DNA of 64,000 nt from Geosiphon pyriformis uo1 (Eukaryota; Fungi; Glomeromycota). Where the stretch lies: positions 805,574 through 869,573 of the forward strand of contig JAAOMT010000183.1 in NCBI GenBank assembly GCA_016748015.1, written 5' to 3'. Both the position numbers and the translations under genes were made by a program. Below the pieces are notes generated by a model, which saw only the letters and a program-made list of their open reading frames with translations, did no database searches and was not told where the DNA came from. Below, in pieces: positions 4,036 through 57,420 of the stretch. The first letter of the stretch is position 1, and each line of letters begins with the position of its first letter.

Positions 4036-7000
4036 TTATTTTCTCCTTCAATATTGAGCTTTATTGAAATCTTTATTTTGAATTAAGTCTATTATTTTTT
4101 TTTTAATACTATTTGTTTAATTTTGTTTCTTATTTTTTTACATTGAGAGTTGTTTACTTTTTTCTACTGGTTAATAGTTTTTATTTTTATTTTTTAGTAT
4201 AGTAGTATTTTTAGATAATTTTAAAATATGGTATGTAGTTAGTAAATTGTTTTAATATATAGTATAAAATTTGTCTTCTTTCTAATAAAATTTTCAATTT
4301 GTTGTACTATTTTTTGATTGAATATTTTTTTAAATTTATCAATATATAATTCTTAGATATTTAGCTTTTGTTCTAATTAATAATAACAGTATAATATTAG
4401 AAGTTGTTTTATTTATAGCTTCCAGTTTTTTTTAATTGGCTCTTTTATTGAGATTATTATTAGTATTTTCTCAAAAGTATTCTTTACTTTTTCTATAACT
4501 TTATCTGATAAGTACTTTGTTTAGTTTTGTAGAATAATTTTTGCTTTTTTTTTTTGGTGTTTCAATAACAAATTGTTTGGTAATTAATGATAATTTCATG
4601 TCTAATTGTTGTTAATTTATGGTCTGAAATAATTGTTAAGCCATCATGTAAATGTGGTCTAGAATTTCTATCTTTTTATTATTGCTTTTATTATGTAAAC
4701 TGTGTCTTTATATACTATTTTTGTAAATCAATTTGATGTGTTTGTGTTAATAATTATAATTGGTTTTAGATCTTATGGAATTTTATCTGGTTGAACTAGT
4801 ATTTATTGTATTCCTAGTTGTAGAATATTACTGGTAGATGATAATACTATATTATAATATGGTTTTAGTCAATTCTTATATGCTGCTTTAGCTAAGATAT
4901 TATTGTTCTATCTTAATTTATAAGTTTTATTTCCTAGAATTTTTTCAATATAAAATGGTTTATTCTATTTGGAATCAAATTTTCCACTCCATACAAGAGT
5001 ATTTTGTCTTTAATTTTAAATTCAACTGGTTTATTTGGTAATTGATTATTATGTCATTTTTTTTGTTTTGCTTGTGATTTTTATATATTATTAGCTGCTA
5101 TTTATCTTTTGTTTTCTAATATTTTTATTAAATTATATGTTTTTTTTAGCAATATTTTTTGAAAGTTGGCTTTTGTTATTGGTTCTATTGGATATGTATT
5201 GATATCTATCTTAGCTGATAATATTGCTATTTTATTATATACAAGTTCAAATAGTATTACTTATGTAGTATTTTGCTTTATTGTTTGATAAACAAATAAT
5301 ACTGATAGTATAAATAAATCCTATTTGTCCTGATTTTTTTGGCTAATTTTGGCTATTGCTTTACACTGTTACAGATAAACTTAGTAAAGTAAGAAAATAG
5401 TAATGTTTAATGCTTTCAATTATCAATAATGTATACATTTGCTTTTTAAATTGCTTTTGTTTTTGGCCATTTTGTAAAATAGTCTATGGCTACTGCTATA
5501 TATCAATTGTTTTTGCTGATTATTGTTAGTAGTCTTACTAAGTTAATTTCAATTTAATTAAATAATTATTCTACTTTGATTGGTCTTAGTGGTTCACTGG
5601 ATTTTGTTCCTCTTTTTCTTTAATAAGCATCACAATTTTGAACATATTAGATAATATTTAAATATATAAATGACCAATAGTATTATTTTTTGGTTCTTTC
5701 TATGGTTGCTTTTTTATAAAAATGTTCTGCTATTAGATCTGAATACATATTAAACAATATTGTTTTTTTTTCTGGTTTTGTAATTACTCTAATTGGCTAA
5801 TCTGGATCTTTTTTGTTTTTCTAATATAGTATATTTTGATAAATAATAAAGTATTTTAATTGTTGTTTTATGTTGTTTTATTTTTTTTAATTTTTTTTTA
5901 AATTATTAAGTATTGATATAATATTAAAGTTGTTAATATTTTTGTGCATTTATTTTTTGTTATATTTTTGGGTTGAAATGTTTTTAAATTTGTTTTATTC
6001 ACAATAAACTATTGGTATTTTTGTTTTTTTTTCCCTTTTTATAATGTACTATATAATTAAATAATGATAATTCTATTTTTTATCTTATATAGTGATCATT
6101 TTCAAATTCCTGCTTTTGAATTGATGTTAATTTTTTGTGATTAGTATACAAATCAAACTTTTAACTAAAGTATTTTTTCCATTTGATGACAACTCAATAA
6201 ATAGTTAAGTGTTTTAATACTAGAGTTCTATAGTTTTTCTTGGCTGGACTTAAACTTTGGTTGACATATGCTATTGGATGTTCTTATTTATCTGTTTTTT
6301 TTGTAACAATACAGCTTCCAATGCTTGACTAAATGCATTAGTGGTAATGATAAATGACTTGTTATAATCTAAATAGATTATTATTAAAGCTTAAATAAGC
6401 TTTCTTCTTAAAATATTAAAAGCTTTTTGTTGAGTTTCAGTCCATTTATATTTAATATTTTTTGTTTATAGCTGGTAGAATAGTTAAGTCAGTTTGGAAA
6501 AGTTTTGGATAAAGTGGCAATAATATTTAGCAAATTCCAAAAATGCTCTTAATTCTATTAAGTTTGTTAATATTAGAAAGTTTTTAACTATTTTAATTTT
6601 GTCTGGATCTGTTTTAATACTGTTTTTGCTTATAACATGTTTTAAAAACTTTAATTTTGTTTTGTTAAAGAAGCATTTGATTGCATTCAACTTTAATTTG
6701 ACTCTTTTTAATTTTTTAAACATTTGTTAGAAATAATAGAAATGGTCATTGAATGTTTTAGAAAACACATTGGTATTGTTTAAGTAGACTATTACTGATT
6801 TTTATAGTAATTTAGTATATACAATTTCTATAAGCCATTGAAAGATAACTGAAGCATTAGTTATAAAAAACATAATATTAAATTTGAAATTCTCTTCTCT
6901 GATTGTAAATACTATCTTTTTTTTGTTAGCTGAATTCATAACTACTTGTCAATAACTACTATCTAAGTCTAATGTTAAGAATCATTTCTTTTTTCTAAAA

Positions 7001-10000
7001 ATATTATATAACTCCTGAATTTATGGAGTTAGATAGCTGTTTTCATAAATAATACTATTAAATTTTCTATAATCTACACAAAAGTGGATTTTTTTATTCT
7101 TCTTATGAACAAATATCATTGGTAATAACCATAGACTTATTGATAATTAAATTAATTTGTTGTTTAATATTTTGTTGATTTCTTGTTAAATAATCTTATG
7201 GCTTGCTAATGGTATTTTGTATGCTTGTTGTTTTATTGGCATTATATCTCTAGTCTTAATTTGGTGTTGAATAATGTCAGTTTTGCCAAATTTATTTTCA
7301 TTTACAAAGATGTTAGTGAAGTTGTTAAGTAATATTTTGAGTTGTATATGTTATAGTAAGTCAAAGTTTTCCAAGTTTATTTTTTTCAATTGTTTTGGTT
7401 AAAACAAATAACATTTTTTTCATCTGTATATTGTTTGTAATATAATATCTATATATCTATACAGTTGTGAAAAATTTGGAATTGTGTTTGGTGGTTGGTT
7501 TTCAACTTCAGTAATTAAATATTTAATAGTAATTCTATTTGGTATTTTGATGGTGTTTTCAGTTGTGTTGTAAATGAAAATTTTAATGTGTTTATAGTTT
7601 TTGGCTAATATGTAGAGATTGGTAATTTTAATTTTTTTTAATTTACAAATAGTTGGTTCTGCTTCAAATATTTGAAGCTAATCTTTCACTTTTTTTTCTA
7701 TTACTAACATATATTGATTATATGGTGAAATAAAAACTAATTAATTGGTAGAAATAATTTTTCTCTTATTAATAATTTTCTCTTTTGTCATATTAACTGG
7801 TATGTTTATTTTATCCATTAATCTAAATTTATTTTTTCTTCTAATTGTAATTCCTAATTTTTTTTTGTTTCTATTGATACTAATTGAACTATTTTTACCA
7901 AAGATAGAAATATTGCCTGTGCTATTTTTTTATTTGATTCAATGGTATATTTTTTTTTGAGTCATTTTGTAGCATTGCAATAATATTTCTTATATATCCT
8001 GTATTAATTATTCTTCTTTTGATATTAATTTCTTTTTTCACTAAACTAAATTTAGATGCTAATTAAACTATTATTGTTGTTGAAATTTCCAGTACTATTT
8101 TTAGATTTATACTGGTATGTAAATAGGGTTCTAATCTGATGACAGTTTTTTCTGGATATCTGAAATCAAATCTTGTATTAGTATTATGTGTGCATTTTGG
8201 CATAATATTTTTATCATTATTGCTGAATCATTTAAGTTCCTATTCTATTAAAAAATCTGCAAGCATAATATATTGTTTAGAGTTGTAATTAAAGTTTGAA
8301 TTATTATTATTATTATTGCTATTGTAAACAAAATTGAAACCATTGTTGTTGTTATTATTAGAATTTAAATTATGTTTGAATTTTGATTCCAATTCTGATG
8401 TGCACTTATTAATTGATTTTTCTTTCTTGGAGATCAAATAGATCATGTGTGATAATAAATTGTAGATAAGATTACAATTGTCACAATATTTGAAGTCATT
8501 TGGAATTAAACAATATTTACAAAGTTTAGTATTTAATTTTTTTAAACACTGCTTTTGTTCTTTTTTAGTGAGTATTAACTTTTAGTAGTGTTCATAGAAT
8601 TGTTTTGGATTGCTTAGGATATTAACAAATATATTTGGATTGGGAATAGGAATGGTTTTGACAGGTTTTGGTGAGTTATTTTTAATTACTAATATTTTAC
8701 TAGGTAAAACATCTTTGATTTTGGTACTTGCCATTTGCCAGATTTTGTTTTCATTATTTGAATAATTATTCAAGTATAAAAGTGCTCAATTTCATGTAGT
8801 ATTAAAATAGGTTCTTTGACTTATTCAGTCATTTATGAAAATTATGTATTAACATAATATGTTACATGTTTCTTCTCAATCAAGAATGTTATTCCATATT
8901 TCTTTGTCAAGTAGCATTTTTTCATAAGCAAAACATAGTTTATTGTCCCACTTTCCTTGTTATTTAGAATAACTAAAACATTTTTAGTAGCAGGATTTGT
9001 AATAGTAGTGGATGCATGTTCAATAGTCTTTTTTAGACAAAATCCAAGCTTTCATAAATGAAAGCTTTTTATTGCAATTAATATATTTAAGTAGAATGTA
9101 TGGCAGTTTTTTCTTTGTGTTCATGAAATAGGATCAATTTTATCTACTAGTTATTTCTTCAGTGGCTGTAATGACTTCTGTTTTATCTTCTTTCTTTATT
9201 ATTCCAAAAGAGTATTAGCAATAATTTATTGTGTTTGTTTTTAGCTCATAAGACTTGATAGACTTCTTAAGTAGATTTTTTTTTCTCTTTCTCCAACTTA
9301 ATTAATAGTTGTTTTCTTGAAAAAGCTTTAAAGTATTTATAAATAACTGGTATTCAAGTTTGTTAACCATCTTAACTAAGCTGTAGCTCTTGTGTAGTTC
9401 AGTCAAATATGATATTAGTTTTTAATAACCAGTCATAATTAACAAGAACTTGATACTGTGTGGCTTCTATTATAAGAACTTTGATAAGTGTCATAATGCC
9501 ATTAACTTTGAACAAGAAGTTATTAATTTTATTGATAAAAATCTTGGTGGCTTTATTATTAGTAATAATTCTGGTATTGACAGTATAATTAACTTAGTAA
9601 CCTAATTGATCCATAAGTTATCATGTAATAATACTGCTTGTAAAACTACTATTAAGAATTAATTTAATAAATTGGCCATCAACTTTGGCATCAGTATACA
9701 TGACAGTAATTGGTTTAGTATTAAAAGCAGCTTTACTGAATAGAAATGGCTTGTTAATTTTTCTATTTTGAAAGGAAATATGGCTGCAAGTAATTTGTCT
9801 TTAATAATAGTTGCTAATAAAATATTGTTGGTAAGTAGTGTTTTTGGGCTTTTTAAGTTATTAAATAAGTTGGTTTTTAGAATAACTAAAAAATTTAAAT
9901 AGTTCTGAAAATTTGGGTTTTGGGTGTACTCATTTCTTAAACTTCACTAACATGATTCTAATAATTAATTTGATAAATTGAAAATTAATTAGTATATTAT

Positions 10001-12944
10001 TATTGCTGATCTCCAATTCTGTTGCATATAAGTAATTCTTGGCTTTTGGTTGCTAGTTAACATTTGAACTAAGTTTTGGAACAGTATTTAAATTAGTTGT
10101 AATTGATAGATAATTTATGGCTGTAGTTAATAAATAACTAATACTAGAGTTTAATATATTGGAGGTAAGTATATGAGTTGTTACATTATTGAAATGTAAT
10201 AAGATTGATATTGTTCCTGATTTTGGGTTTGATTTGGAGTTTAAAACTGGTGATTGGAGTTTTAATATTGATTTTTTGATCATTGATTATTTAATTTTAA
10301 ATGACAATTGAATTTTAAGTGTCTTTGTTTATTACAATAGTGGCAGATACACATTTTTTACTATTATGATTGATTGGTTAATAAAAATAATAGGTGTAAT
10401 TGATTTTGAAAATGATTGGAGTTTTTTTAATTGTTATAATATTGTGGAAATTAATAGATTGTTTAATTGTTAATTAAATATCTCTAATTTTTTGATTAAT
10501 GGCTTTGCCAAATTGTTTTAATTTGGTATCCAATTTAAATAATTTGTTTATTAATAAGTTTACAGCTTAGGTGTAATTGGCTTTAAGTTCAGCTAATTTA
10601 AAATCTTGAATATGTGTAACTGTGTTTTGAAAAGTATTTGGGTATATTAGACATACTCATTGTAACAAACTACTGTATAATCCATAAATAAATTGGTTTA
10701 AAATCTGTGCTGCTGTAAAGTAGTTAGCTTAAATTGTCTAAATTTGGCATAGATTTCTATAAAAATGTTCTAAGTAAATAGTAACTGTTTTAGTATTAAC
10801 TTGTTTAATTGTGATAAAACTAGTTAACAATTGATTGATACTGTTGTAATTATTAAAATATTGTAAAAACATGGTTTTAAATGTGTTAAAAGTTTGTGGC
10901 TTGTTAATGAAATTTTAATACCACAAGTTGGTAGTATTCTATAAAAAATAAGAAATGGCTTGAAAAGCTTTGGCATTGTCTCAATTATTGGCTATAATTG
11001 TCTTAACTATGTCATTCAATTATGTTTAGGCATTGTTTTTTTTACTGGTAAATTTTTCAAGTTTGACAATAAGTGTATATGCTATTGGTGCTAGTTGTTG
11101 TTGTTGCAATTGTTGTTAAGATTGTTGTTGAAGCTGTTGTTATAATAAAGCAATTAGTACAATTGGTGAATTAATCATAATTACTAGAGATAAATTTTGC
11201 TAAATAATAGAAATGGAATTTAAATTGTTCTGATTTTGTAAAGTTTGAACAATCAGAGTTTGTATTTCTGGATTATTTGAAATTGGATTTTAATTATTAT
11301 TTCTCTGATTGCTGTTGTCTTTTTTTTCTAATTCAGTATCTTTTTAATAACTAGTAGATTTAAAATTTGGTTGAAGTAACAGTTATCAAAGTTTAATGAC
11401 ATTGTTGGTCGCAATTTAAATTCTTTAAAGTAATTGTCATATGTTCCTAATAGTTTGGTTTTCTCTTAATAATTTTGGAATAGTACTCTAAGTAATGATG
11501 TTTTTGCAATTGATAGTAATATGAATCTGAATAGTATATATATAGTACTTTCTGGTATATGATGGTATGATAAGTAAATAGATAAAATAATTTTAGATTT
11601 CTTCCAATTAGGTAGTTGTATTTTTCTTGATGTTTTTGCTGGAGTTTGTAATTATTTTTTGTCTGTAAAGATAATAGAAAATTTTTATTAAATGTAATTT
11701 TCAATTTTTTTGTTTATTTTTATAATTAATAGTATAAACAAATAGTTTGGTAAAAGTATAGTGCTTTGAAATAATTTACTATAAAAATTGTTGAAAGTGG
11801 TTTTTGAATCTTTTTGGTCTTTCAAATAGGATTTAATTTTTTTTTAACATAGTAATTGAAAGCTAATTTTGCTGGTTAATGATTATTTATCAGTCCAAAA
11901 TAGATTTGATAATATTGAAATAAATATTTCACAAATTCTAAATAATTTTCTCTTATGATTTCTTGTTTTGTCACTTTTCTGAATAGTTGATATTGGTGCT
12001 GGTTCTCTGTTGGATTATATCTCACAAGGAGCACCAAATATTACAGGTAATTATTTAGGATGTTAGAACAAATAACAAATCTGTAACTTGGTGCTCAATA
12101 GTTGAAAATATTGGTAATTTTGAAGGTTTTGGAGTTTGAAGGTTTTGGTTAAGTTTTTTGTATAATAGACAAAGATTTAATTAATGGTTGCTTCCATGAA
12201 TTTTTTTTTTCAATGTAATAGCCAGTTTATTTTAGCAATTGTGCCTTTCTGATAAGTTATCCTTAAATTTTTACTCTTATTTTCAGGTTTTTTATCAGAC
12301 TATTTTTGATGTTAACTATTTAATACTTAATTCTTTTAATCAATTAGCAAATAACAAAGAATGAAACAAAAAAAAAAAAATAAAATAAAAAATAAAATAA
12401 GAAATTAATATTCTGTTAATAGTTATAATCAAGAGTTATTGGTTCAGTATAATTAATTATTGAATTCTATTAATATGGAGTGTTGATAGTAGGTAAGTGA
12501 TTAATATTCTTAATCAAGTAATAATAATATGAATTAGATAATAATTGAATATTTTTATTAATATAAATGTTGTTACCGGAGGTTTTTGATCTCTTTTCTT
12601 GAATGTTGTTGATGTCTGTTTGCTGTGAATTCACGTTTTCTGGATGTAGTTGAACCTCCAGTAACTGAATTTATCTTCAAATTATCTCCTATAATTTGAA
12701 CTGCTGGGCTTATAAGTGGAATGGCCAATTCCTTACCAGTTACTTTATGTAGTTATGTTGTAGTAAACGTCAACTCTTTTCCAGGAATTGCTCGTCTAGA
12801 AGCTCACTAAAATGTATAGTTACTTTGCTGTGAAAGTCAACTCTTCTACAGGAATCTCGTCTGTAGGCTACCTTAATGATTGTAATAAGAAAAGAAAAGG
12901 AAAATAAAAGAAATGTAAAAGAAATAGAATTTTTGTCAAGAGAA

Positions 12945-12964
12945 NNNNNNNNNNNNNNNNNNNN
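12945..12964. other. Assembly gap inside the B 3' LTR
   Basis: 20 N. Comparison with the 5' LTR (21426-21842) implies roughly 417 bp are missing. Confidence 0.95.
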
Positions 12965-13121
12965 CATGATTAATTATCACAATTAGGTTACATTTGTGTT
13001 GTGTACAATTTGGGTTATTAATTAAATGATAATTTCGAACATTCTTTGCTAATGTAATAAGTGATAATTTGAAATGATAATATATGCTAATTAATGATAG
13101 GAATTATGAGATAGTTTCATG

Positions 13122-13841
13122 CTAAATGATATCTCTAATTTTGTCTGGTAACATAACCTCTTCCTCAAGACTGAGCTCCATCGAAGTCCAAGTACTGTCT
13201 GTTATTTCCAAATAATAATCCAAAATTATTGAAGAAATTTGGTCTGAAAATTGTTGAAATTTCAGTTCTGTGAGCTTTCCAATGTATTGAATCTTCAAAG
13301 GTTGAAAAATTGGGTTTTGTAGTACATTTTCACAGGTGTAGAATAGGTCATAAAGTCTAAGAGCAGCTCTAAGCCTATAGCGACTGTTTGTTGATCCAGC
13401 TGTTGTCTTGAATTTGTTGTGGGGTTGTTTCTGAATAGCTTCTTTTGTGAGATTTGCTGTTGTAAGTTCCAGTTTCCGTTCATAGAGTGTTTTTCCAATG
13501 TGAAAATATCTATAGATTGGAGAATATTTAGTGTTTTCCTCATTAAGACACAGTTGAAGTTTTTGTTGACTTGTAGCATTTGGTGGGATACTAATCAGAG
13601 TGAGCATTAGGTTTTCTCTTAAAGCAAGCTTTAAAAGTTCTGGCAGGTGAATTTCAGTATAACTTCTTGTGTTCTTTTTATACAGATGATATTTTCGTGA
13701 ATTTGGAGCTAAATTTGTAACTACTTCTGTTTGGGTATAATTTATGTGGTTTCCAGTAATAGTAATGGATAATTTGGGTATTGTTTTTAAAGCTAACATT
13801 AGTTTTTGGGATAATTGTTGAATGTTTTGAGGAATAGTCAT
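13122..13841 (-). CDS. Element B ORF3, unknown function (~239 aa), runs through the PPT into the 3' LTR
   Basis: Uninterrupted ORF from ATG 13841 (MTIPQNIQQLSQ...). Homologous decayed ORFs occupy the same position in A, C and D. Confidence 0.85.
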   Translation of the reverse strand: MTIPQNIQQLSQKLMLALKTIPKLSITITGNHINYTQTEVVTNLAPNSRKYHLYKKNTRSYTEIHLPELLKLALRENLMLTLISIPPNATSQQKLQLCLNEENTKYSPIYRYFHIGKTLYERKLELTTANLTKEAIQKQPHNKFKTTAGSTNSRYRLRAALRLYDLFYTCENVLQNPIFQPLKIQYIGKLTELKFQQFSDQISSIILDYYLEITDSTWTSMELSLEEEVMLPDKIRDII

Positions 13842-13956
13842 TATAAGCACTTGAAAAAAATAAAAATTTATTTTTGGTTTATGGGTTTTTATGTTATTTT
13901 TGTTTTGTTTTTGTGAGATTGTTCTAAATTATAAGAGAATAACTAGTAAAATTAAA

Positions 13957-15342
13957 TTAAGTGTTCAGGTTGGAAGGTTGTTTAATGACAACTATTGGTT
14001 CTAAGTTTCGGGGAATATCTTTGGGACTGATTAAAGGGGAATGTGTACCAATTTGTGGAATTAATGGTTCAGGATTGTTTCTGGAATAATAGTGTTTCAA
14101 ACGATCTCCATGTGCAACTTTTGCTAGGATTTTGTTATCAAGTCTTAGCTTGTATGATCCATTGCTTAGAACTTCATGAATAAAAAATGGTCCATCCCAT
14201 TTATTTTCAAATTTTCCACTCCATTGTTTTTCAGCTTTAGTTCTGTGTAAGAAAACTTTGTTTCCAATTTTGAATTTATTGGTGACTGAAGGCAATTTGT
14301 CATCATGCCGTTCTTTTTGTTGAGCTTGGGAGTGTTCAATATGGGTGGCTGCTATTTGTCGTTTTCTTTCCAATGTGCTAAGCAGAGTATAGGCTCTTTG
14401 CTGAAGCGTTTCTTGGAAATTGTTTTCATCAATCGGTTGTGTTGGGTATGTTTCCACTGTGAAACTAATTGGTAATGTTGCCGTCCTTCCATAAGTTAAA
14501 TCAAATGGTGTGTGTTTTGTGGTATCTTGTTTTAATGTCCTATATGCTAGTAACACTGATGGAATAAAGAGATCCCATTCTTGCCCAAAATCGGTTAAGA
14601 CTTTGGCTAATGACTCACATAATATTCTGTTAAAACGTTCCACAAGTTTGTTTGTTTGTGGATGGTAGGGCAAAGACAGAGGTTTTTTGACACTGAATCG
14701 TTCACAAATTTTTTGTATCAGGTTGTTCACAAAGTGTGTTCCCTGATCAAATAAAAGTTTAATTGGACATCCATGTCTACAAATGATGTTTTCGTAGATG
14801 AAATTTGCTACTGATTTTGCATCTGCTTGTTGAATGGCTCTGGCTTTAGGCCATTTAGTAAGATAGTCTACAGCTACTGCAATATAATGGTTTCCTTGAG
14901 TGGTAATAGATAGTGGTCTGACTAAATTGATACCAACTCTGTCAAAAGGCTGTCCAACTTTGATTGGGTTTAAAGGTTTTGTAGGGCGAGTTCCTCCTCT
15001 TCTTTGACAACTATCACAAGATTTGACATATTCGTGAATGTCTTTTCTCATTCGAGGCCAAAAGTAGTATTCTAGTGTTCTTTGGGTGGTGCTATCTTTT
15101 CCGAAGTGTGCTGATGAAGGATTAGAGTGCATATTGTATAAAATGGTTTCTTTTTCCTGTTTTTGTATTAATCTGAATGGTTTGGTTGGGTTTTTGAAAT
15201 TTTGATGATAGATAATGTTGTTGTGTAGAAAATATTGTTTGGCTTGTTGTTGTAACCGATGTTTTTTGTCTGGGGACCAATCTGTTGAGATTGTTAATGT
15301 CTCCAAATATTGTTTGAGATTGTTGTAGTTTTTGGGGTTCAT
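13957..15342 (-). CDS. Element B integrase (stand-alone ORF, 461 aa)
   Basis: HHCC zinc domain (MHSNPSSAHFG...CDSC), core (VGINLV [D>N], DQGTHF, VERFNR) and GPY/F module (WDGPF). No chromodomain seen. Has its own ATG. Confidence 0.95.
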   Translation of the reverse strand: MNPKNYNNLKQYLETLTISTDWSPDKKHRLQQQAKQYFLHNNIIYHQNFKNPTKPFRLIQKQEKETILYNMHSNPSSAHFGKDSTTQRTLEYYFWPRMRKDIHEYVKSCDSCQRRGGTRPTKPLNPIKVGQPFDRVGINLVRPLSITTQGNHYIAVAVDYLTKWPKARAIQQADAKSVANFIYENIICRHGCPIKLLFDQGTHFVNNLIQKICERFSVKKPLSLPYHPQTNKLVERFNRILCESLAKVLTDFGQEWDLFIPSVLLAYRTLKQDTTKHTPFDLTYGRTATLPISFTVETYPTQPIDENNFQETLQQRAYTLLSTLERKRQIAATHIEHSQAQQKERHDDKLPSVTNKFKIGNKVFLHRTKAEKQWSGKFENKWDGPFFIHEVLSNGSYKLRLDNKILAKVAHGDRLKHYYSRNNPEPLIPQIGTHSPLISPKDIPRNLEPIVVIKQPSNLNT

Positions 15343-15391
15343 TGTTTGTTGTTTTGATGCTGTTAATTCAAATGGGTGTTGGTTTTGTTTT

Positions 15392-18300
15392 CTAATCTTG
15401 CCTCATCCTTGAGAGACAATCAACGTTGGTGTGGAGTTTTCCTAGTTTGTGGTGTACGATGTATTGGTAATTAGCTAAAAATCCTGTCCATTGGGTTTGT
15501 TTTGCGTTCAGCTGGGTGTTTTTGTTTTGAAGCCATTTAAGTTCAATATTATCAGTGATAATATCGAATTTTTTGGGTCTGAGGTAAAGGTTGAAGTGAT
15601 GTAGGGCCCAGATTACTGCTGCAGTTTCTAATTCTGTTGTGGGGTAGTTCTTTTTGGCTGGCTTTAATGTTCTACTAGCATAAGCAATTACTCACTCATT
15701 TCCATTGTCATCTAACTGTGATAGGATGGCACCAAAGGCAGTATAAGAGGCGTCAATTGCTAACTGGAATTGGTTGCTGAAATCTGGGTAGGTGAGGATT
15801 GGAGCTGTTGTGAGTTTTTCCTTAAGTATCTCGAAGACATTTTGGTGTTCTTCTGTCTATTTGTATTCAACATTTTTAGTAGTGAGCTGGTTGAGAGGTT
15901 TTGCAATTTCTGAGAATCCTTTGATGAATTTTTGGTAATAAAATACTAATCCAATAAATCCTCTTAATTCTGTGGTATTTTGTGGAGTCTTGAAGTTCTT
16001 GACAGTACTGATTTTTTCGGGGTCTGGTTTAATTTTATCTTTGCTAACAATGTGACCAAGAAAAGCTAAACTTGTTTTTCCAAAGTAGCATTTTTTAATG
16101 TTCAGTTTCAATCCTGCTTTCCATAATCGTTGAAAAACTTCTCACAGGTGGATTAAATGTAGCTTGAAAGATGGTGAATAAACATCAGTGTCATCGAGAT
16201 AAACTACTACTGATTTCCAAAGGAGGCCTTTATAAACAACATCCATGAGTCTTTGGAATGTTGCTGGTGCATTGCATAATCCAAAAGGCATTATATTGAA
16301 CTCGTAATTTCCTCCTTGAGTGGTGAATGCTGTTTTGGGGCAGTCTTTGGGATCCATAGCAACTTGCCAGTATTCACTCTCTAAATCTAATGTTGAAAAG
16401 TATTTGGACTTTCCAAGGACATCCAACATTTCATCAATTTGGAGAAAAGAGTAGGCATCCCCAATGGTGACACTGTTGAGTTGTCGGTAATCAACACAAA
16501 ATCATATCTTTCCATTTTTTTTTTTAACTAGGACCACAGGTGAGGCCCATAGGTTCATTGATGGTTGAATAAGCCTATTGTTAAGCATTCATTGTACTTC
16601 TTCTCGGATAAATTGGTGACTTTCTGGGGCAACTCGGTAGGCTTGTTGTCGCCTTGGTTTGGCATCTCCTGTATAGATTTGGTGTTGAACCAAATCAGTT
16701 CTTCCTAAGTCATTGTTGTTTTCGGCAAAGATGTCAGCAAATTCTGCAATTAGCTCTTTGAGCTGGGTCTGTTGTTGTGGTTCAAGTTGTCCCATGTTGA
16801 TTCAAGATAGTTTTTCCATGACAACATAGTAGTTTTTGGAGCTGGGGTTTGAGTTGGTTTTTGGTATTGAATGTCCAATAATTTCAGTGAAATCGGGAAC
16901 TATTTGGGGTAATTCTTGTTGAAATATATTACTGTGAATAACTCCAATTTCTAAATTATTTAATAAAATTATAAGGTAATTATTGGGGTTGTAAAAAGTA
17001 ACTCAGACTTTCTTTGTTCCTTCTGAAATATAAATGTTTGGGATCAAAATATTATGTTCCAAGCAGACTTGTTCATTGGACTCAAAAATTTGTTGTGTGG
17101 TTGTTGACTTTGGGCAGGTGTAGATTTCCGGATGTTCTTCAAAGGGTGAGATAGTAATTGGTTGTGAAAGTTTGAGAATCTGATGGGATTTGTTCTGTAT
17201 GTTAAGAGCTATATTAACTGGAACTATGAATTGTCCAGTTGAACCAAAACCTTGGGTTTTTTTATCACTTTTTCCTAATTGTTTTCTTTGATTGACTAGT
17301 TGCAAACCCGAAATGTTGATTAAGAGTAGGTAAATAGCTTGGGCAATTTTTTCAGCATGTTTGATCTTGAATGGTTTGTCAGTTTCATTTTGAAGCATCA
17401 CTGTTATGTCTCCAGTATATCCAGCATCGATTATTCCTCCTCTGACATTGATTTTTTTGCTTGCCAGAGAGGACTGGGAGGCGATTTGAACCATTGCTCC
17501 TGGCGAGATTTCGAGTACAATTTTGAAGTTGATTTTTGTGAGAGATTTGGGTTTGAGAACAAGAGTATCCTTGCCTGGATATCTTAGGTCATATCCAGCA
17601 TCAATTTCGTGTGCTTTTTCAGGTTTTATTCCTTGTCCGTTGTTGTTGAAGTATTTAAGTTGTAAGGCAGGCTGATTTTTGATAAGGTAGATGGGTGTTG
17701 TTTCAATTTCTTCTGTTTCTTCAGGTTCTCCGAATTCAATTTCATTCTCATCATTTTCGCTGGGCAAGGGGATACTAAAAGCATAGCATTCAAAACACCA
17801 TTGTTCATCACAAGGCATAATGCATTCTTTACATAGCCTAATGTTCATTTGCTCTAATCGTTGAATTTGAGCTTCTTGGGTCGAGTAGGTGTAACTTGCA
17901 ATTTGGTAGTAGACTTTTATTTCATCTTCGTAATTGAATTCAGCTAATTCCATAGTGTATTCAATGTATTCTGCTTCCTTTATTTGATGAACATCTCCTT
18001 TGGTAGCTCCATTAATTAATGCCATTGCTAAGTCAAAAATCATCTCGGCATCATGAGAGTAGTGATAAAGTTTGTTAAAAGCACTATTGTATGCTGCATT
18101 AAAGGGTGTTCCTTTTTTTACTTTTTCTGAAATTAATAAAGCATATTGGCAGGTCTGATTGCAGACACCTCCTCTCATTGCTATATTAATCCAATTGCAT
18201 TTTTCTGGTAGCATCTCTCCATAAGTCAAACAAGGGGTGTTGTCCCATTTTCCACTTCTTTTTATTAGATGGCCTCATCGCTCTCTGGCAAGCCTTGCAG

Positions 18301-21005
18301 TAATAACAAGTATGATTCTCATATTCTTCTTCAGGCAAAATGCAGGCTCCCATTGATGATAGTTTTTTGTAACAGTCCTTACATTTAAGGGGGATATAGG
18401 GGCGTTGTTTCCTTGGTTCGGGTTTTGAGTAAAGTATATTCCATCTAGAGGTTTCGGGTTTAGTGTGTGGGGTGAAATGTTCTTGTTCTGTTTTATCAGC
18501 CCAGTTGGACGTTGATCCAAGAGCTATGAATGTTTCAATTATTGGTTTTTCTTCTTCCGGTTCAAATTCAAAAGCTGGGGCTTTTTCAGAGTGTTTGTTG
18601 AATGTACCACAAATGGCAGATACTTGGGTGTGTTGTTCTTGGTAGGAGATTGTTAACTCTTGTGTTTCCCAATTCAGATTAGCATTGGCTTCTTGAAGCC
18701 AATCATTTCTGACGAGAGCTTGATACTGGGGTGCATCCATTACAAGAACTTTAACTGGAATGGTGATTCCATTAAGAGTGAATGGAAAATTGTCAATTTT
18801 TCTTACTGGGGTCTTTTTCATGTCATCGGCAGTGACGATTACTGTTTAAGCTGGTCAGTTGACATTTCTTTTCAACTGTTGCATTAACTGGTAAGTAATA
18901 ATGCTTCCAGTGGATCCACTGTCTAGGATCAAGTGAATTGGCTTTCCTTTTACTTCAGCTTCTGTGTACATTACAGTGATGGCTTTTTGCTCATTAGCCG
19001 CTGCATTGCTAAGCAAAAATGGTGATTCATTTGCTTCAAATTCAAAAGGAAAAATATCAGAGAGATTGGCGTTTTCAGCAATTTGGACTGGTAGAATAGT
19101 GGTGTGGTTATGAGAAGGGTTTTGTTGTTGTTGTGCTGCAGCTCTACCTTCTGAGAGTGTAGTATGGTGAAAATCCTGTTCTTCCACCATTGTTAAATAA
19201 CTGGGTTGAGTGTGGTAATGGTTGGGTCTTGTTTGAGTGGTATTTTGGGAAACTAATTGGTTGTTCGAACTGATTCTACTGTTGTTTACTTGGTATTGGT
19301 TTTGTGGTATAAATTGATTTTGTGTAATCAGTCTTTGAGCAGGTACTTGATAATGTTGGGTGGGTGGTTATTGGTATTGCTGTTGGATTGGTTGTGGGGC
19401 AGGCTGATAATAGTTATTTTGGTATTGGGGTCTTGGTAGATAGTAAGCTGGTGGTGATGGTTGATAATAAGATTGCTGTAGTGGAGAGTAATGTTGATTA
19501 TCCCTATTTTGTTGGTCTCGTTGCAGCTTTCTGCAATCTCTTTTTCAGTGGCCAGAGATTCCACAGTAATGGCAATTCTGAGGCTGGTTGTTGGAAAGTG
19601 GTGCAAAGTTATTTTGATTTCGTCTTTGGGGTGGTTGATATCTTTGGGATTGTTGTTGTTGTTGGTTGGTAAAATAGTTTTCGACCTTCTTTGTGAGTTG
19701 GTCAATTTTTTCCTCAGCTGCTGAGCTGGTTTCTCCAATTGCCAAATTTACAAGTTTTGTACGATTGGCTTCTTCCATGGCCATTTCGTATCTTTTCGCA
19801 TGCTGTATGACAGAGTTTAAATCTTCTGGTGTGTGTGGGCGAATCTTTTTAATTAGTTTATTTTTTAGACCAACGATAAATTGATCCAAGATTTGAGCAT
19901 CAGAATAATAATTGTTTGTCTCAAGTTGGCAAATCCGTTTGAAAAGTTTGTTGAATTTTCCAATATAAGTCATAACGGATTCGGAGGGTTCTTGTTTGAT
20001 ATTTCGAAAATGATTGCGAAGAGTGATAGAGGTATTATTGTTGGTGAACTGTTCAAGGAAGGCTGCTTTGAAAGCATTCCAATCATTGAATGGGGCGGCA
20101 AGGTTTTCAAACCATTCTCCTGCTGTTCCTTTGAGAAAGTAGGGAATTGTTCTTAACATTCTGGCAGCGTTCCATCCATTTGCATCTCCAGCTTTAGTAA
20201 CTTGATCAAGTTATTCTTGGGGACTGGTCTCAATATCTTCTTCATTGAATTCAGGGATTTTTGTGATGTATGTTGTCATTTCATTTTCTTCGTTTTTACT
20301 GTCTATTGATTCTTCTTCGGTTATTTCAGAGTTGTTTTCTTCATTTGCTGCTGTCTCAGAGTGTTCACTTTGATTTTCAGCTAGAAAATCAAGGAGATTG
20401 AAACTAGTTTGAAGGGGTTCTTGTTGTTTGGTGGAACTTCTAAGTGATGTAAAATCTTCTGGTCTTGCAAATCGATTCAAGAATGAATTAGGTGTTTGTG
20501 CTTATGCAAGCGAAGCTGGAAAAAGTGTGATAGTAAGTGGAAGTTTTGAACTGGTTCTTTGTTCAGGTGTTTGTAAATGTCTGGCAGTTGTTTTCGGTAG
20601 TGTTGGAGTATTTGGGGTGGTTTTTGAATATTGCTTTAATTTGTTTTTGTTGTTTGTTTCTGTTTCCGATTCAAAATCAATAGTGTATTGAGACTGCACT
20701 GGATATGTTTCTTTACAGTATTTGATAATGTTAAAATTAAGTTTGTGAAAGTAAGTGGCAAGTGTTTCACTATTAAGGTCTTCAGTTCCCAACTGTGAAT
20801 AGTGTACTAAATTATTGTAAAGATTGCTTCTAACTTCTGAAATATTGTAATTTCCAAAAAGATAATTGTTGATGCGGTTTTCAATGTATTGGTATACTGA
20901 TTTCTTGACAATTTCAATTCCGTCTGGAATGTTGAATCTTTGCTTGCAGTGGGTGTAAATTGATTGGTAATACTCTAGAGTTGTTGCGTCTGGTGTGGTC
21001 ACCAC
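15392..21005 (-). pseudogene. Element B Gag-PR-Cys-rich-dUTPase-RT-RNaseH polyprotein (nonsense-disrupted)
   Basis: Capsid (19545-20159), CHYCGISGH knuckle, LILDSGS protease, dUTPase motifs, RT YLDD (16142-16429), RNase H ending NVDCLSRMRQD* at 15392-15394. Same frame from 21005 to ~18230, then one frameshift. Confidence 0.95.
17230..17640 (-). CDS. dUTPase domain within element B pol
   Basis: All five dUTPase motifs: AGYDL, (R)SSLA, GIIDAGYTG, EKIAQ, GFGSTG. Confidence 0.95.
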
Positions 21006-22259
21006 TTTGAATTTGTTTTTGCTATGTTATTTCCATGGGAGAGCACCAAATGTTACCGGAGGTTTTTGGTCTCTTTTCTGTAATGTTGTTGATACTTATT
21101 TGCTGTGAATTTACGTTTTCCGGATGTGGTTGAACCTCCAGTAACTGAATTTATTTTCAAATTATCTCCTATAATTTGAACTTGCTGGACTTATGAGTGG
21201 AATGGCCAATTCCATGCCAGTTACTTTATGTAGTTATATTGTAGTAAACGTCAACTCTTTCCCAGGAATTGCTTGTCTGGAAGCTTACTAAAATATATAG
21301 TTACTTTGCTGTGAAAGTCAACTCTTCTACAGGAATCTCGTCTGTAGGCTACCTTAATGATTGTAATAAGAAAAGAAAAGGAAAATAAAAGAAATGTAAA
21401 AGAAATAGAATTTTTGTCAAGAGAAACATTTTCTATCCAGGCCTGGAGTTACTAACAGTTTACTGAAATTGGTAGCTAATCAATTTCAAAACGTTAGTTG
21501 GGTTTTGGGAATTTTCCAAGTGCAATAATTAAAGAATTTGGTTTTTCAAATTATTTGATATTTATTTTTTTTTGTGTGTATAGGAATGGTTCTAAGTGAT
21601 AAATCTAAAGTAAGATACATTTTCTCGAAGAGAGAAGCTCTTCTTTTATACAACTTGTCGTAACACTATTCTATGAACTTGAACTTTGCTATTTTCTACA
21701 ATTTCGCTGAACTAAAGATACATTTCGGCAAACTACAAGTTATTTCTGCAAACTATTAGATATTTTGGTGAACTATCAATTATTTCAGCGAATTTCTATA
21801 AATTTTGGCGAACTTTTGAATGTTATATAGTTCGGGATATTGCATGATTAATCATCGCAATTAGGTTACATTTGTGTTGTGTACAATTTGGGTTATTAAT
21901 TAAATGATAATTTCAGACATTCTTTGCTAATGTAATAAGTGATAATTTGAAATGATAATATATGCTAATTAATGATAGGAATTATGAGATAGTTTTATGC
22001 TAAATGATATCTCTAATTTCGTCTGGTAACAATGTGTTTCCACTTTAAGTTATAGAAAACTATCTTTTAAAAGGAGAGTATTGGGGTTCTGAACTCTATT
22101 AAATTCTAAATCAATTCTGTCTTTTTTGTTTCTAATACTTTCACTATATATACATAATTCTTGTTATACAAGATCTTGTATTTTCTTGAGCAATATGTCT
22201 TATTTTTTCTGATAATGTGCTTATTACTAAGCAATATGCTATAATTTTTGACAATATGC

Positions 22260-25200
22260 TGTTACAAATGATTATTTGGAGTCTCAAATCAAATAACAAA
22301 CTTGTAATTTGGTGCTCAATAGCGATATTAATGGTGGTGGTAATCTGAAAGTTTTGGTTGAGTTTTTTGTATAAGAAACAAAGATTCAATAATTGTTTTC
22401 AGTAGTCTCTTGGAATCGCAATTCTATCAATTTTTTTCTCGGCTTGGTGGCCAGCAATCCTCTAATAAGTAATTCATAATTCTTTATGTGTTTTACTTAC
22501 TCACAGAGATCTTTTACCAGGCAATCCTTAACATCAATAATTCAGTGCTTAATCTTTAATTAAGTTAGTAACAACAAAAGAAATAACAAAATAGAAAATA
22601 AAAGAAACAAAAAAAATAAAGAATAAGCCAAGACAATTTTTCTTACAAGTTAGTATTCCATCAATAGCTGTGATCAAGAGCTATTGTTTTAGTGTGGTTA
22701 AGTATGAATTACTATCAACATGAAGTGTTGATAGTGGAAAATGAATCAAGATAGTGAATAATTATTTATTGATATTTGTAATATAGAAGATTGCTTAGAT
22801 TAAATCTAAACTGAGAGGTCTGTTTTTTCTATTTCTAACACTACCACTATATATACATAATTGAAATTCCTCAATTCCTCAATTTTTCACACCAGGAATC
22901 CTGGAATTTCTGGAATCCTGCAATTTCTTTTGAGAAGAATTCTGTGATTCCTTGTATGAGAATCCTGAAATTCTTAGAATTCTGCAATTCCTCTTGAAAG
23001 AAATCTGGAATTCCATATTTATTATGGCTACTTCTGATTGGCTAATTATATATGCTAATATATTTCCTATATTTTATGAGTAATATTATTCTTTCTTTTT
23101 TTAATATTGAGCTCTATCGAGATCTCCCAAATCTCCTAACTCTAATTCTCCATCCTTGAGTATTTCTTGAACTTTTTTTTCAAGAATTACTTGAGTTATC
23201 TTGTTTTGTAACTCTTTAAATTGGGTGTTAGTTATTTTTTCCATTTGGTTAACTGTAATAGAGTTTATTTCTGAATTAAGTAAGATTTCTGGTCTGTCTT
23301 GAAATTCAGTATATAGCTAATAGATGGCTCTTGCTTGTGTAGTTAAATTGTTCTTTTCCACAAATTGTTCCAGTTGTTGTAGTATTGTTGTGTCAAATAA
23401 TCATTTTTTTTTATCTGTGTATAAGTTTTGAATGTTCAAGTGTCATCCCAAGTGAAAATAACAAAAGTTCTTTGAAAATTTGTGTATTCACTATTTCCAA
23501 GTTTTTTTGGTCAACTCTTAATATGTGCTGATATTTGTTGGTTTTTCCATTGCTAATTTTATTTTCAGAACCATTTTGTCAATAGTGTTTTCTGTTTTTT
23601 TTTGACTTTTGTATTTGGGTATTTTTCTGGTATTTCAGTATCAAATGGTTTGTTGATTGATAGTAATTTCTATATTCTGTTGTTGAATTAGTTGAAAGAA
23701 TTGTTGTGTTAGTGAGTGGATATTGTCAGTAATTTCCATTTTTCTAAAGTCTTTTGTCACATCTATTATGTTTTTGTATACATTTTTTATTGTTCAACTT
23801 TATGTATTTGGTCCAATGATTATAATTGGTTCCAGATCTCGTAGAATCTCATCTGGTTGGACTAGTATTCTCTGTACTCTTAATTGTGGAATATTACTGG
23901 TAGATGGTGACACTATATGATGATATGGTTTTAGTCGATTACTATGTGCTGCTTTGGCTAAGCTTTTATTGTTCCATCTTAATTTATAAGCTCTATTTCC
24001 AAGAATTTCTTCTATGTGAAATGGTTTGTCTTATTTGAAGTCAAATTTTTTATTTCATTGTTTTTTTGCTTTGGTACAATATAAAAGTACTTTGTCTTCA
24101 ATCCTGAATTCAACTGGTTTATCTAATAGTTGGTTATCATGTCTTTTTTTTTGTTTTTTTTGTAACTTTTGGATGTTATCAGCTGCTCTTTGCCATTTGT
24201 TTTCTAGTGTCTTCATTAAGTTATACGTTTTTTTCAACAATGTCTTTTGAAAATTCTCTTTGGTTATTGGTTCAGTTGGATATGTCTTGACTTCTATTTC
24301 AACTGGTAATGTTACTGTTCTACTATATACTAATTCAAATGGTGTTGCTTGTATAGTGTCTTGTTTCATTGTCTGATAAGCAAATAATACTGATGGTATG
24401 AACAAATCTCATTCATCCTGGTTTTTTTGGCTAATCTTAGCTATTGTTTCACACAGTGTTTTATTGAACCTTTCAACTAACTTATTGGTTTGTAAATGAT
24501 ATGGTGATGATAATGGTCTTTTAATTCCAAATCTTTGGCTTAATTCTGCTAATGTTCTATTTACAAAGTAAGTTCCTTGATCTAATAGTAGTTCTTTTGG
24601 ATATTCATGTTGACATATTAAATCTTAATGAACAAATTTGGCAACAGATTCTGCATCTGCTTTTTAAATGGCTTTTCCTTCTGGCCATTTAGTAAGATAG
24701 TTCATGGCTACTGCAATATATCTGTTGTCTCTACTGGTAATTGTTAATGGTCTGACTAGATCAATTCCAATTTGATCAAATAGTTGTCCCACTTTGATTG
24801 GTCTTAATGGTTTATTTGATTTTGCTCCTTCTCTTCTCTGACAAGCATTACAATTTTGAATATATTGAATAATGTCTGGATACATTGATGGCCAATAATA
24901 TCTTTTTCTGGTTCTTTCTATGGTTGTTTTTTTGTGAAAATGTTCTGCTGTTGGATCTAAATGCATGTTGAATAGTATTGTCTCTTTTTCTGGTTCTGTG
25001 ATTACTCTTGTTGGCTGGTCTGGATTTCTTCTGTTTTTTTGGTACAGTATATTTTGATGATTAATAAAATATTTTGATTGCTGTTTTATGTTGTTTTGTT
25101 TTTTTCAAGATAATTTCTTCTTGAACAATTGAGTATTTATATAATGTTAGAGTTGTTGGTATTTTTGGATATTTATTTTTTGTTATATTTTTGAGTTGAA

Positions 25201-28200
25201 ATGTTTTTAGATTTGTCTCATTTGTGACAACCTGTCAGCATTTCTGTTTTTTTTTCTCTTTTTATAATGTACTGTATATTTGTATAGTGCAAGTTTTATT
25301 TTCCATTGAGCATGATAATCATCTCCAAATTTCTGCTTCTGGATTGAAGTTAATCTTTTATGGTCTGTGTAAATGTCAAATTTCTGGCTCAAGTATTCTT
25401 TCCATTTTATTACTGCCCAGTAAATAGCTAAGTGTTCTAGTGCTGGTGTTCTATAGTTCTTTTCCACTGGGCTCAAACTTTGGCTAATGTATGCTACTGA
25501 ATGTTTTCTTTCATCTGGTCCCCTCTGTAATAGTACTGCTCCTAATGCTTGACCTGATGCATTAGTTGTAATTATAAATGGCTTGCTATGGTCTGGATAG
25601 ATTAGTACTGGAACTTGGATGAGCTTTCTTCTTAATGTATTAAAAGCTTCTTGCTGAGTTTTTGTCCATTCATATTTGGTGTTCTTTGTTTAAAGCTGGT
25701 GCAGTAGTTGAGCTATTTTGGAAAAGTCTTTGATAAAGTGGCAGTAGTATTTGGCAAATCTCAAAAATGCTCTTAGTTTAGTTAAGTTGTTTAGTACTGG
25801 AAAGTTTTTGACTACTTTAATCTTGTCTGGGTCCGTTTTGATACCATCTTTGCTCACAACATGTCCTAAAAACTTGAGTTCCATTTTTCCAAGGAAACAT
25901 TTAGTTGCATTTAGTTTTAATCCAGCTCTTTTTAGTCTTTTAAACACTTGTTGAAGATGATACAGATGATCATTGAATGTTTTTGAAAACACATTGGTAT
26001 TGTCCAAGTATATGACTATTGACTTCCACAATAGTCTGGTGTAAACAATTTCTATTAGCCATTGGAATGTGGCTGGTGTATTCATTAATTCAAATAGCAT
26101 GACTTCAAACTTAAAGTTTTCTTCTCTTGTGGTAAATGCTGTTTTTTCTTTGTTGGCTGGATCCATGGCTACTTGCCAGTAACCATTATCTAGATCCAGT
26201 GTTGAGAACTATTTATTTCCACCGAAAGCATCAAATAATTTCTGGATCTGTGAAATTGGATAACTGTCTCCACAAGTAATACCATTGAGTTTTTTATAAT
26301 CCACACAAAAGCGGATCTTCCCATTTTTCTTCCAGACTAGTACCACTGGTGATGACCATGGACTCATTGATAGTTGAATTAACCCATTGTTAAGCATTTG
26401 GTTGATTTTTTGACAAATGATCTCATGGCTGGCAGATGGTACTCTGTATGCTCTTTGTTTGATTGGTATTGCATTTCCAGTTTTGATCTGATGCTGGATT
26501 ATGTTGGTGCAGCCAAATTTATTTTCATTAGCAAAGATGTCATTGAAATTCCTGAGTAACATTTTTAATTGCATCTGTTGAAGTGGGTCTAGATTCCTCA
26601 TATTCATCTGTTTTAATTGTTCCAGTTGGAGTAGATAATATTTATTTTGTCTGTAAATGATTTGTGATGTGATGTCTACATATCCACAAAGCTGTGGAAA
26701 ATTTGGAATGTAGTTTGGTGGTTGATCCTCAACTTCAGTGGTTAAATATCCAATGATAGTTCCTTTTGGTATCTTGATGACACTTCCAATTGTGTTGTAG
26801 ATGAGAATTTTGATGTTTTTAAGGCTTTTGGCTGGTATGTAAAAATTAGTGAGTTCAAGTTCTCCTGATTCACAAATGATGGCTTCTGCTTTGAACAACT
26901 GAGCTTGATCTTTTACTTTCTTTTTTATAGCTAATATATACTGGTCATATGGTGGAATGGAAATTGATTGATAGATTGAGATAATTTTTCCTTTGTCAAT
27001 AATTTTTTCCTCTGTCATATTAATTGGTACATCTATTCTACCCATTGAACTAAATCTCTGTATCCTTCTAGCTGTAATCCCTAATTCTTTTTTGTTTCCT
27101 ACTAACACTAGCTGAGCTATTTTAACCAAAGGCAGAAATATTGTCTGTGCTATTTTTTTATTTGGCTCTATTGTATAGGCTTTTTCTGAATCATTTTGTA
27201 ACATTTTAATAATATTTCCTATGTATTCTGTGTTAATTATTTCTCTTCTGATATTTATTCTTCTTTTTGCTAGGCTATTCTTAGATGTTAGTTGAACCAT
27301 GGTGGTTGCTGAAATTTCCAGTGCTATTTTAAGATCAATGTATGTGCATAAATATGATTCCAATTTTATGACTTCTTTTTCTGGATATCTTAAATCAAAC
27401 CCTGCATTAGTATTATGCACGCATTCTGGCATAATACCTTTATCATTATTGCTAAACCATCTTAGTTCTTGCTCTTTGTTGAGGTCAAGGAGTGCAATAT
27501 ATTGTTCAAAGTTTGAATCTGAGTTTGAATCTGAGTTGAAACCATTGTTGTTGTGGTCATATTAGACTGAGCTGAAACTGTTGTTTTCATCATTGTCATT
27601 GTCAGAGTTTGAATTGGAATTGAAAGTTGATTCCAATTTTAATGCACAGTAGCTGATTGGTTTTTCTTCTTCTAGAATTGTATATATCATACATGGTGGC
27701 AGATTGTAAATAAGATCACACTTATTACAATATTGAAAGTTACATGGAATTAGACAGTGTTGACACAGTCAGGTGTTTAACTGCTTTAAGCATTGCTCTT
27801 GTTTTTCTCTTGTGGGTGCTAATTCTTGGTAGTGTTCATAAAATTGCTCTGGATTTAGGAGATTTATGACTGGTTCTGGGTCCTAGTCAAGTTCTATAGG
27901 TTCTGATAGGTTATTTTTGATTTTTCTAATTTCTTCAGGTAACACTTCTTCTATTTTGGCTATTGTCATTCTTCATATCTCATCATTGTCATATAGACAA
28001 CTGTCCAATTGCTGAATGGTTCTTCTTCAAGTGACTTCTATTGGTGTTCCTTTCCTAATCCAGTCATTGATAAAAATTATATACTGGCATGAAATGTCAC
28101 ACATTCCTTCTTAACTAGGGATGTTATTCCATATTTCTTTGCCAAGTAATGTTTCTTTACAAGCTAGGCAAGATTTGTTGTCCCATTTTTTTTGCCATTT

Positions 28201-55962: not shown

Positions 55963-55972
55963 TTCCAGACTC

Positions 55973-57340: not shown

Positions 57341-57420
57341 ACAATGTGCAGCAAATTAAATTGAGAAATTCAAATATATATAGTATCTAAAAAGCAACAA
57401 GAAACAATAGAAATTTCAAC

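Follow-up and report, generated by a model that had tools for sequence, protein, structure and literature searches.

How a long terminal repeat (LTR) retrotransposon could make an integrase (IN) that is not part of its Pol polyprotein is the question raised by a 64,000-nucleotide stretch of the Geosiphon pyriformis uo1 genome (GenBank assembly GCA_016748015.1, contig JAAOMT010000183.1, positions 805,574 to 869,573 of the forward strand), the whole of which is referred to here as the window. Four Ty3/gypsy (Metaviridae) elements, A to D, were identified in it, and all share one layout. Gag, protease (PR), a Cys-rich domain, dUTPase, reverse transcriptase (RT), and RNase H (RH) occupy a first open reading frame (ORF) closed by a stop codon; integrase follows in an ORF with its own stop, and a third frame, ORF3, lies behind it. 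The location of integrase and ORF3 outside Pol is regarded as close to certain. The features of Ty3/gypsy elements were all present, namely, TG..CA LTRs, target duplication, a primer-binding site (PBS), a polypurine tract (PPT), and the order PR-RT-RH-IN. The parts of element A, in window positions, are as follows.

12571-22031, minus strand: element A, with TG..CA LTRs and a 4-bp target duplication (ATGT)
21051..22031, minus strand: 5′ LTR, 981 bp, TG..CA; identity to the 3′ LTR is 94.4% and 96.8% in its two sequenced parts
21031..21048, minus strand: PBS, beginning with TGG 2 nt past the LTR; no primer tRNA assigned
20280..21005, minus strand: GTG start (context AAAGTGG) and pre-capsid extension of 242 codons, with no Pfam match
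19533..20279, minus strand: conserved capsid ATG, capsid domain (Retrotrans_gag, E value 1.6e-14; Ty3_capsid, E value 4.3e-9), and a CCHC knuckle read from the sequence
18579..18980, minus strand: aspartic protease (DSG), E value 1.3e-4 over its first half, below the curated cut-off; 53 to 55% identity to B and C
17741..18400, minus strand: Cys-rich domain, in which several CxxC pairs surround a helical stretch, with the frameshift of A near 18295 inside it
17231..17629, minus strand: dUTPase (PF00692, E value 1e-19), aligned in A, B, and C
16871..17230, minus strand: conserved beta-type segment
15395..16732, minus strand: RT (YLDD) and RNase H (RVT_1, E value 1.2e-29; RT_RNaseH, E value 3e-32)
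15343..15394, minus strand: Pol stop (TAG) followed by a spacer of 49 nt that lacks ATG, with integrase in the +1 frame
13957..15342, minus strand: stand-alone integrase ORF, 461 amino acids (aa)
13122..13841, minus strand: ORF3, 239 aa, helical, extending across the PPT into the 3′ LTR
13154..13166, minus strand: PPT
12571..13153, minus strand: 3′ LTR, collapsed by a 20-N assembly gap at 12945-12964

Pfam matches in A covered capsid, protease, dUTPase, RT, RNase H, H2C2, rve, and the SH3 tail. The initial annotation had read the window as holding four divergent copies of one tricistronic lineage. The common layout was confirmed by the LTRs, the target duplications, the Pfam domains, and the presence of both the stop after RNase H and an ORF3 homologue after integrase in all four copies (the ORF3 profile being partly built from the same families). 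There are indeed four elements; however, B and D share 73% nucleotide identity over 3.6 kb and are one family, so that three families rather than four are present, and "tricistronic" applies to the three reading frames of the DNA, from which the layout is known here.

In C, a single frame of 1919 codons runs from Gag to RNase H; the corresponding frame of B, counted from the capsid ATG, has 1741 codons. ORF1 of A has one frameshift, and D aligns collinearly with B but contains frameshifts. In all four copies, the Pol stop lies 3 to 4 codons past the RNase H end motif. The spacers that follow measure 49 nt in A (+1 frame), 30 nt in B (in frame), 10 nt in C (+1 frame), and 30 nt in D (in frame), and all end at a homologous integrase start, which reads ATG in A and ATA in the other three copies.

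Such stops could be products of decay in an ancestor with an ordinary gag-pol and a fused integrase. Transitions outnumber transversions by 243 to 8 between the LTR pairs of A, B, and C, many ORF1 stops are of the decay type, and the integrases of B and D are in frame with Pol. Against this, the integrases of A and C are out of frame behind nonhomologous spacers, the integrase Met is conserved, and near-intact relatives are all split. These relatives were sought first as proteins of 253 to 807 aa, the best 120 of 1098 integrase homologues being compared. Among these 120, 115 begin with Met and 96 begin exactly at the ATG position of A; they are 359 to 453 aa long, 118 falling within 390 to 460 aa, and those with a named source comprise five from Rhizophagus irregularis and one chimeric Geosiphon model. 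No chromodomain family was found in the integrase of A or in the listed Pfam sets of the 120 relatives. Viral contigs gave just two distant integrase matches.

Related loci (n = 82, fetched) included 48 with an RT-RH match. A Pol stop followed by an integrase ATG was found in ten metagenome loci (L001, L004, L005, L009, L010, L011, L012, L014, L016, and L019), whose spacers measure −8 to 727 nt and cover all three frames, and nine of these contain 2 internal stops in 9,277 codons (L014, with a frameshifted integrase, was left out). Among the other loci, integrase is fused in eleven distant ones, precedes RT in five, and is split off in L027, with the remainder broken. The five with integrase upstream of RT (L056, L057, L078, L079, and L080) are distant gypsy-type elements outside the split clade, and their order is one we take to be Gmr1-like. 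In L027 (1077-1185), integrase stands apart from RT-RH, with a short duplication within the spacer.

Trees of RT-RH placed the ten split loci together with A to D (14 rows) on one branch, with support of 95 by FastTree (38 rows) and 91/96 by IQ-TREE (29 rows), and the integrase tree united all split rows with support of 84. The RT-RH trees contained the window copies and the fetched loci, and described clades (Ylt1, SN_1006, Mag, Osvaldo, Gmr1, and Tat/Athila) were not among the rows. Left out were 14 of 52 RT matches shorter than 230 aa (38-row tree), nine more near-duplicate or broken distant rows (29-row tree), and D (integrase tree). The RT-RH of clade member L004 matched Ty3 RT best in PDB (E value 1e-97, versus 9e-57 for the next entry). 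Thus, given spacers in different frames, a conserved integrase Met, and split relatives nearly free of stops, the split is not caused by decay. Integrase did not prove to be fused once decay was discounted, and a decay origin of the stops, which is very improbable, was counted as already refuted by the ten split loci and the conserved Met. The distinct lineage with its own expression strategy that the initial annotation had proposed, with integrase and ORF3 outside Pol, is supported by the RT clade and by its split relatives.

Long acidic, Cys/His-bearing extensions past RNase H were seen in L004 (3497-4441) and L010 (4945-6705) and also in L003, L006, and L021; no Pfam family was found for extensions of the L004/L010 type. 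Three clade members have an in-frame stop between protease and RT (L001:872, L010:3360, and L014:1587), which is either decay or a further recoding site.

Readthrough of the Pol stop, or frameshifting, to give an RT-RH-IN fusion would suit the in-frame junctions of B, D, L011, and L012. Such a fusion is nonetheless scarcely credible, given that junctions occur in all three frames, that the spacers hold further stops, and that the integrase start is a conserved Met in strong context. Pol of these Ty3/gypsy elements ends at RNase H, and integrase and ORF3 occupy separate frames with start codons of their own; it appears just probable that ribosomes reach these starts by internal entry or reinitiation on the full-length RNA. 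Translation of integrase via ribosome entry on genomic RNA is given about an even chance. The context of the integrase AUG is strong in 15 related loci, of which 13 have a purine at −3 and 13 have a G at +4; ATGs number 23 in the 150 nt upstream, versus 34 in shuffled sequences (P = 0.02).

Seven loci carry a 45-nt covarying three-way-junction RNA motif 3 to 18 nt before the integrase ATG. It has 14 pairs, with 96.9% of cells paired and two-sided changes in 6 of the 14 (0/500 shuffles), whereas slid controls of the alignment were 21 to 44% paired. A model built from these seven training loci recovered the held-out L022 just before the integrase ATG (51.6 bits) and L002 weakly. Motif positions are L003:582-626, L004:4460-4504, L022:16-60, and L002:21-63, with further copies in L006, L007, L013, L015, and L021, and the nine carriers form one integrase subclade (support, 93). 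A search of 16 loci against Rfam 15 gave no matches at an E value of 1. The model found no match in viral contigs and one in prokaryote genomes (L083; 16.8 bits; E value, 0.19), which is likely due to chance. Since the motif is tied to the integrase AUG, a putative role in initiation or in integrase binding is favored. The 727-nt Pol-IN spacer of L010 (6706-7432) contains small hairpins that recur, along with motif-like fragments.

The same three frames could alternatively be expressed with integrase and ORF3 on capped subgenomic RNAs, produced by splicing or from internal promoters, as occurs for retroviral env and foamy-virus pol. This account is possible but the less probable one. In its favor, spacer length and frame are unconstrained, and the two long spacers keep an ATG-poor zone at the integrase start, the nearest ATG being 82 and 110 nt upstream. 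T-rich tracts or TATA-like runs occur in several spacers, and the RNA motif ends in a CAG that is invariant in the seven training loci. However, a common splice acceptor was sought across the junctions and not found, nor was a common weak folding before the integrase start; the last YAG lies 5 to 110 nt from the ATG, with none within 150 nt in L012. In addition, the L002 variant of the motif lacks the AG, and the −8 overlap of L014 resembles translational coupling.

That overlap, of 8 nt between start and stop, would also suit tightly coupled stop-restart throughout the clade, of the TURBS (termination upstream ribosome-binding site) or victorivirus type, as would the spacers of ≤30 nt in 5 of 14 junctions and the requirement of SART1 for RNA structure downstream of the stop, as stated in the available part of PMC10275272. 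The same portion of that source places the limit for TURBS-type reinitiation at roughly 30 nt between stop and start. Nine of the 14 spacers exceed this limit, two of them being longer than 360 nt with many ATGs, and stop-restart as a rule for the whole clade is considered improbable.

At the other end of ORF1, AAAGTG was found downstream of the PBS in all four copies, and an ATG is present at the capsid start in A, B, and C. Between the two lie 2, 6, and 5 ATGs, respectively, versus 8.2, 10.7, and 10.4 expected from dinucleotide shuffles (P = 0.002, 0.039, and 0.027). In L004, L005, and L010, an LTR and PBS precede a first Gag start whose ATG has a pyrimidine at −3; of the three, L010 is complete, with an LTR at each end. 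The 498 to 1074 nt after this first ATG contain no ATG in any frame, versus 5.7, 8.1, and 8.4 expected (0/1000 shuffles each). The weak first start and ATG-free leader of these relatives fit leaky scanning with two Gag forms and a GTG start. They lend support to the GTG start proposed in the initial annotation and to two putative Gag forms, with GTG (or a weak ATG) as the first start.

ORF3 was likewise followed beyond the window. A profile matched 9 of 83 loci, with ORF3 after integrase, four of which (L003, L006, L007, and L008) were not in the training set. The A-family profile matched a distant ORF3 set (E value, 4.7e-5) through a common core of Y-x-x-G and R-x-Y-x-x-F, and in the C family another copy (P0271) starts with Met at the ORF3 start position of C. 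All 120 listed of 203 homologues are Geosiphon pyriformis hypothetical proteins (up to 92% identity), which by itself points to this Glomeromycotina fungus or a near relative as the likely host, and a library-wide profile search gave 35 matches, of which the named distant ones were also from Geosiphon. Many annotated host "hypothetical proteins" are ORF3 or other pieces of the elements, frequently within chimeric gene models (P0001-P0120 and P0241-P0272).

ORF3 proteins are 119 to 239 aa long and without a Pfam family. The predicted model (predicted local distance difference test [pLDDT], 70; helical core, 62-221) had no Foldseek match at an E value of 0.001 in viral or PDB libraries, and VIA-align gave only common helical matches (best Z, 5.4, among helical bundles). 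Hydropathy revealed no membrane segment, the highest 19-residue value being 0.34 to 1.05 in six ORF3s. Since neither a family nor a membrane segment was found, nor any match to a known fold or to env, an env identity was ruled out, and the "virus-like" character assigned in the initial annotation was not borne out. ORF3 is most likely an accessory factor, soluble by hydropathy. A closterovirus coat protein, the top row in a protein atlas (0.94; 150 shared features), was a weak lead not backed by the fold searches.

Three frames, a conserved integrase start, a common RT clade, and ORF3 after integrase are read directly from these elements; the steps that follow are proposed. Scanning ribosomes would start weakly at GTG (a weak-context ATG in relatives) to yield an N-terminally extended Gag-PR-RT-RH polyprotein, and those missing GTG would leak through the ATG-free leader to the capsid ATG. 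Integrase would be initiated de novo at its own AUG by a ribosome entering within ∼60 to 240 nt upstream, and in one subclade the three-way-junction RNA 3 to 18 nt before that AUG may assist. Because integrase is not part of Gag-Pol, it cannot ride into the particle that way and would likely be packaged by binding RNA or Gag. ORF3 would have a putative role as a soluble accessory protein of the element cycle. A broader proposal is rather unlikely: that this is a widespread undescribed fungal Metaviridae clade in which one genomic RNA would give extended Gag, Gag-Pol without integrase, integrase, and ORF3, the compact three-way junction ahead of the integrase AUG representing a new class of initiation element and ORF3 serving as a reinitiation or integrase-packaging factor of the elements' own.

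Several points weigh against this scheme. The route to the integrase AUG was deduced from DNA sequence, and the RNA motif was not found in A to D or in 9 of 18 loci with a visible integrase start region. ATGs lie inside the spacer in 3 of 11 junctions (7 in L001, 12 in L010, and 1 in L016, the last in strong context 16 nt before the integrase start) and count against simple reinitiation by stopping and then scanning. The integrase start codon is ATA instead of ATG in B, C, and D, and since B and D are in frame with Pol and heavily decayed, these two by themselves are compatible with a decayed sense codon. The size range of the protein search would have kept fused RT-RH-IN relatives from appearing, and the loci were retrieved via the integrase alignment, with split or fused labels assigned before tree building. 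IQ-TREE support for the split clade fell short of the starred level, and L027 is split yet outside the main RT clade. For Gag, one later stretch of C was as poor in ATGs as its leader (5 versus 13.2 expected).

Conservation of the Cys-rich domain and dUTPase extends over A, B, and C, and both are also present in D. The Cys-rich domain had no Pfam or protein-atlas match, and a predicted model of both (three-row alignment) reached a pLDDT of 31. In retroviruses, dUTPase limits uracil in cDNA, and by analogy it would do so here. Profiles of the two found no matches across the 82 related loci, and PR-RT linkers of four clade members are just 81 to 165 aa, which points to a local gain; the pair is, from this distribution, a later insert presumably local to this host branch, and the suggestion that the whole domain combination marks the lineage is not supported. 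A second dUTPase-like domain had been read in the beta-type segment that follows, which had no Pfam match and a profile probability of 0.2 against dUTPase (three-row alignments); this comparison gave a dUTPase duplication no support. Nor is the description of dUTPase as mostly retroviral supported, as fungal gypsy elements with the enzyme between PR and RT are already published, according to the accessible sections of PMC2864245 and PMC6431247.

The other elements of the window, and their marks, are as follows.

22260..32306, minus strand: element B, target duplication ATGC, LTRs 88.6% identical
31412, 30432, 25209, 25176, 23802, and 23739, minus strand: GTG, capsid ATG, Pol stop, integrase start position, integrase stop, and ORF3 ATG of B
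49079..59244, plus strand: element C, target duplication ACAG, LTRs 87.7% identical
50203, 51007, 55960, 55973, 57338, and 57421, plus strand: GTG, capsid ATG, Pol stop, integrase start position, integrase stop, and ORF3 start position of C
3118-32474 overall, minus strand: element D, B family, heavily decayed, target duplication CTGA/CTAA, LTR identity 82 to 86%
3118..12570, minus strand: main part of D, with GTG at 11974, Pol stop at 5986, integrase start position at 5953, and ORF3 remnant at 4098-4553
12038-12570, 22032-22259, and 32307-32474, minus strand: pieces of the D 5′ LTR, split by the insertions of A and B

A and B are both nested in the 5′ LTR of D, at sites ∼230 bp apart, and targeting to LTRs is possible. 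Related solo LTRs lie at about 40620-41489 and 45140-46053, and an integrase fragment lies at 844-1784. TG..CA termini are decayed at some element ends, and ORF1 of B and C has 31 to 37 stops. The C positions that differ between LTR pairs span all dinucleotide contexts (CpA, 119; CpT, 65; CpC, 32; CpG, 27), and observed/expected CpG is nearly lost in B (0.07) and D (0.01), versus a normal 0.94 in the host gene island. The transition bias suggests hypermutation of repeats, resembling repeat-induced point mutation or driven by methylation, in a Glomeromycotina-type genome. The host gene island (33282-38403) contains a Vps23/TSG101 gene (UEV and Vps23 core) and an SRA-domain gene at 35165-35800 (E value, 9e-50); an exon at 38032-38403 is weakly SET-like.

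It is nearly a rule among LTR retroelements that integrase is packaged within Gag-Pol. A successful clade that breaks it must set enzyme amounts and load integrase another way, and the enzymes of these elements are likely made and packaged by an unusual route. The variable junctions, the new structured RNA at the integrase start, the ATG-free Gag leader, and the orphan accessory protein offer natural testable parts. LTR elements make up 41.2% of the G. pyriformis genome, according to the portion of PMC11952901 available. With this coverage, and at least 120 annotated "hypothetical proteins" being ORF3, the layout matters for how genes are counted and transposons classified in mycorrhizal fungi.

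Several known systems share single features with these elements. In murine leukemia virus, glyco-Gag arises from a near-cognate CUG upstream start that extends Gag at its N terminus, with the main start reached by leaky scanning; here, the first start is GTG or a weak ATG, and the extension is unrelated. Cauliflower mosaic virus (TAV), SART1, Helminthosporium victoriae virus 190S (HvV190S), and Cryphonectria hypovirus 1 (CHV1) likewise have a long ORF followed by another that starts at its own AUG, with structured RNA near the junction (PMC10275272, available text), but spacers here range from −8 to 727 nt, ORF3 has no TAV-like match, and the RNA motif has no Rfam match. The dUTPase-bearing fungal gypsy elements (PosPlaTy3-5, Tmt1, and Phanerochaete elements) and planarian Burro carry dUTPase in the same place, between PR and RT, in the accessible parts of PMC2864245 and PMC6431247. 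In comparison with these, to which they are likened by layout only, the present elements have the Cys-rich domain first, no chromodomain, and a separate integrase.

Env-bearing gypsy elements (errantiviruses) have a third ORF in the same place, between integrase and the 3′ LTR, whereas ORF3 is of 119 to 239 aa, soluble by hydropathy, and without an env match. A stand-alone rve integrase ORF is shared with Ginger/GIN DNA transposons, rve being used as the Ginger marker in the available portion of PMC5751038; here, however, integrase lies within LTR elements downstream of RT-RH (checked in A to D and L010). Stand-alone integrase ORFs of this type could be miscounted as Ginger. The elements are thus not chromoviruses, not env-bearing, and not Ginger.

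Fungal gypsy surveys describe one fused ORF or two ORFs with integrase in Pol, as far as the available text of PMC2864245 and PMC3248453 goes, and integrase within Pol is also given in the accessible part of PMC4139406. No description of a split-integrase or three-ORF layout was found in the literature searched, which lay outside subscription journals, Repbase, GyDB, and REXdb. The layout is a real and apparently undescribed variant of Ty3/gypsy organization, as judged from compared rows that did not include the named gypsy clades. Set beside canonical Ty3/gypsy, such as yeast Ty3, the elements are alike in LTRs, PBS, PPT, and PR-RT-RH-IN order and differ in having integrase as a separate ORF, a conserved ORF3, and two likely Gag starts.

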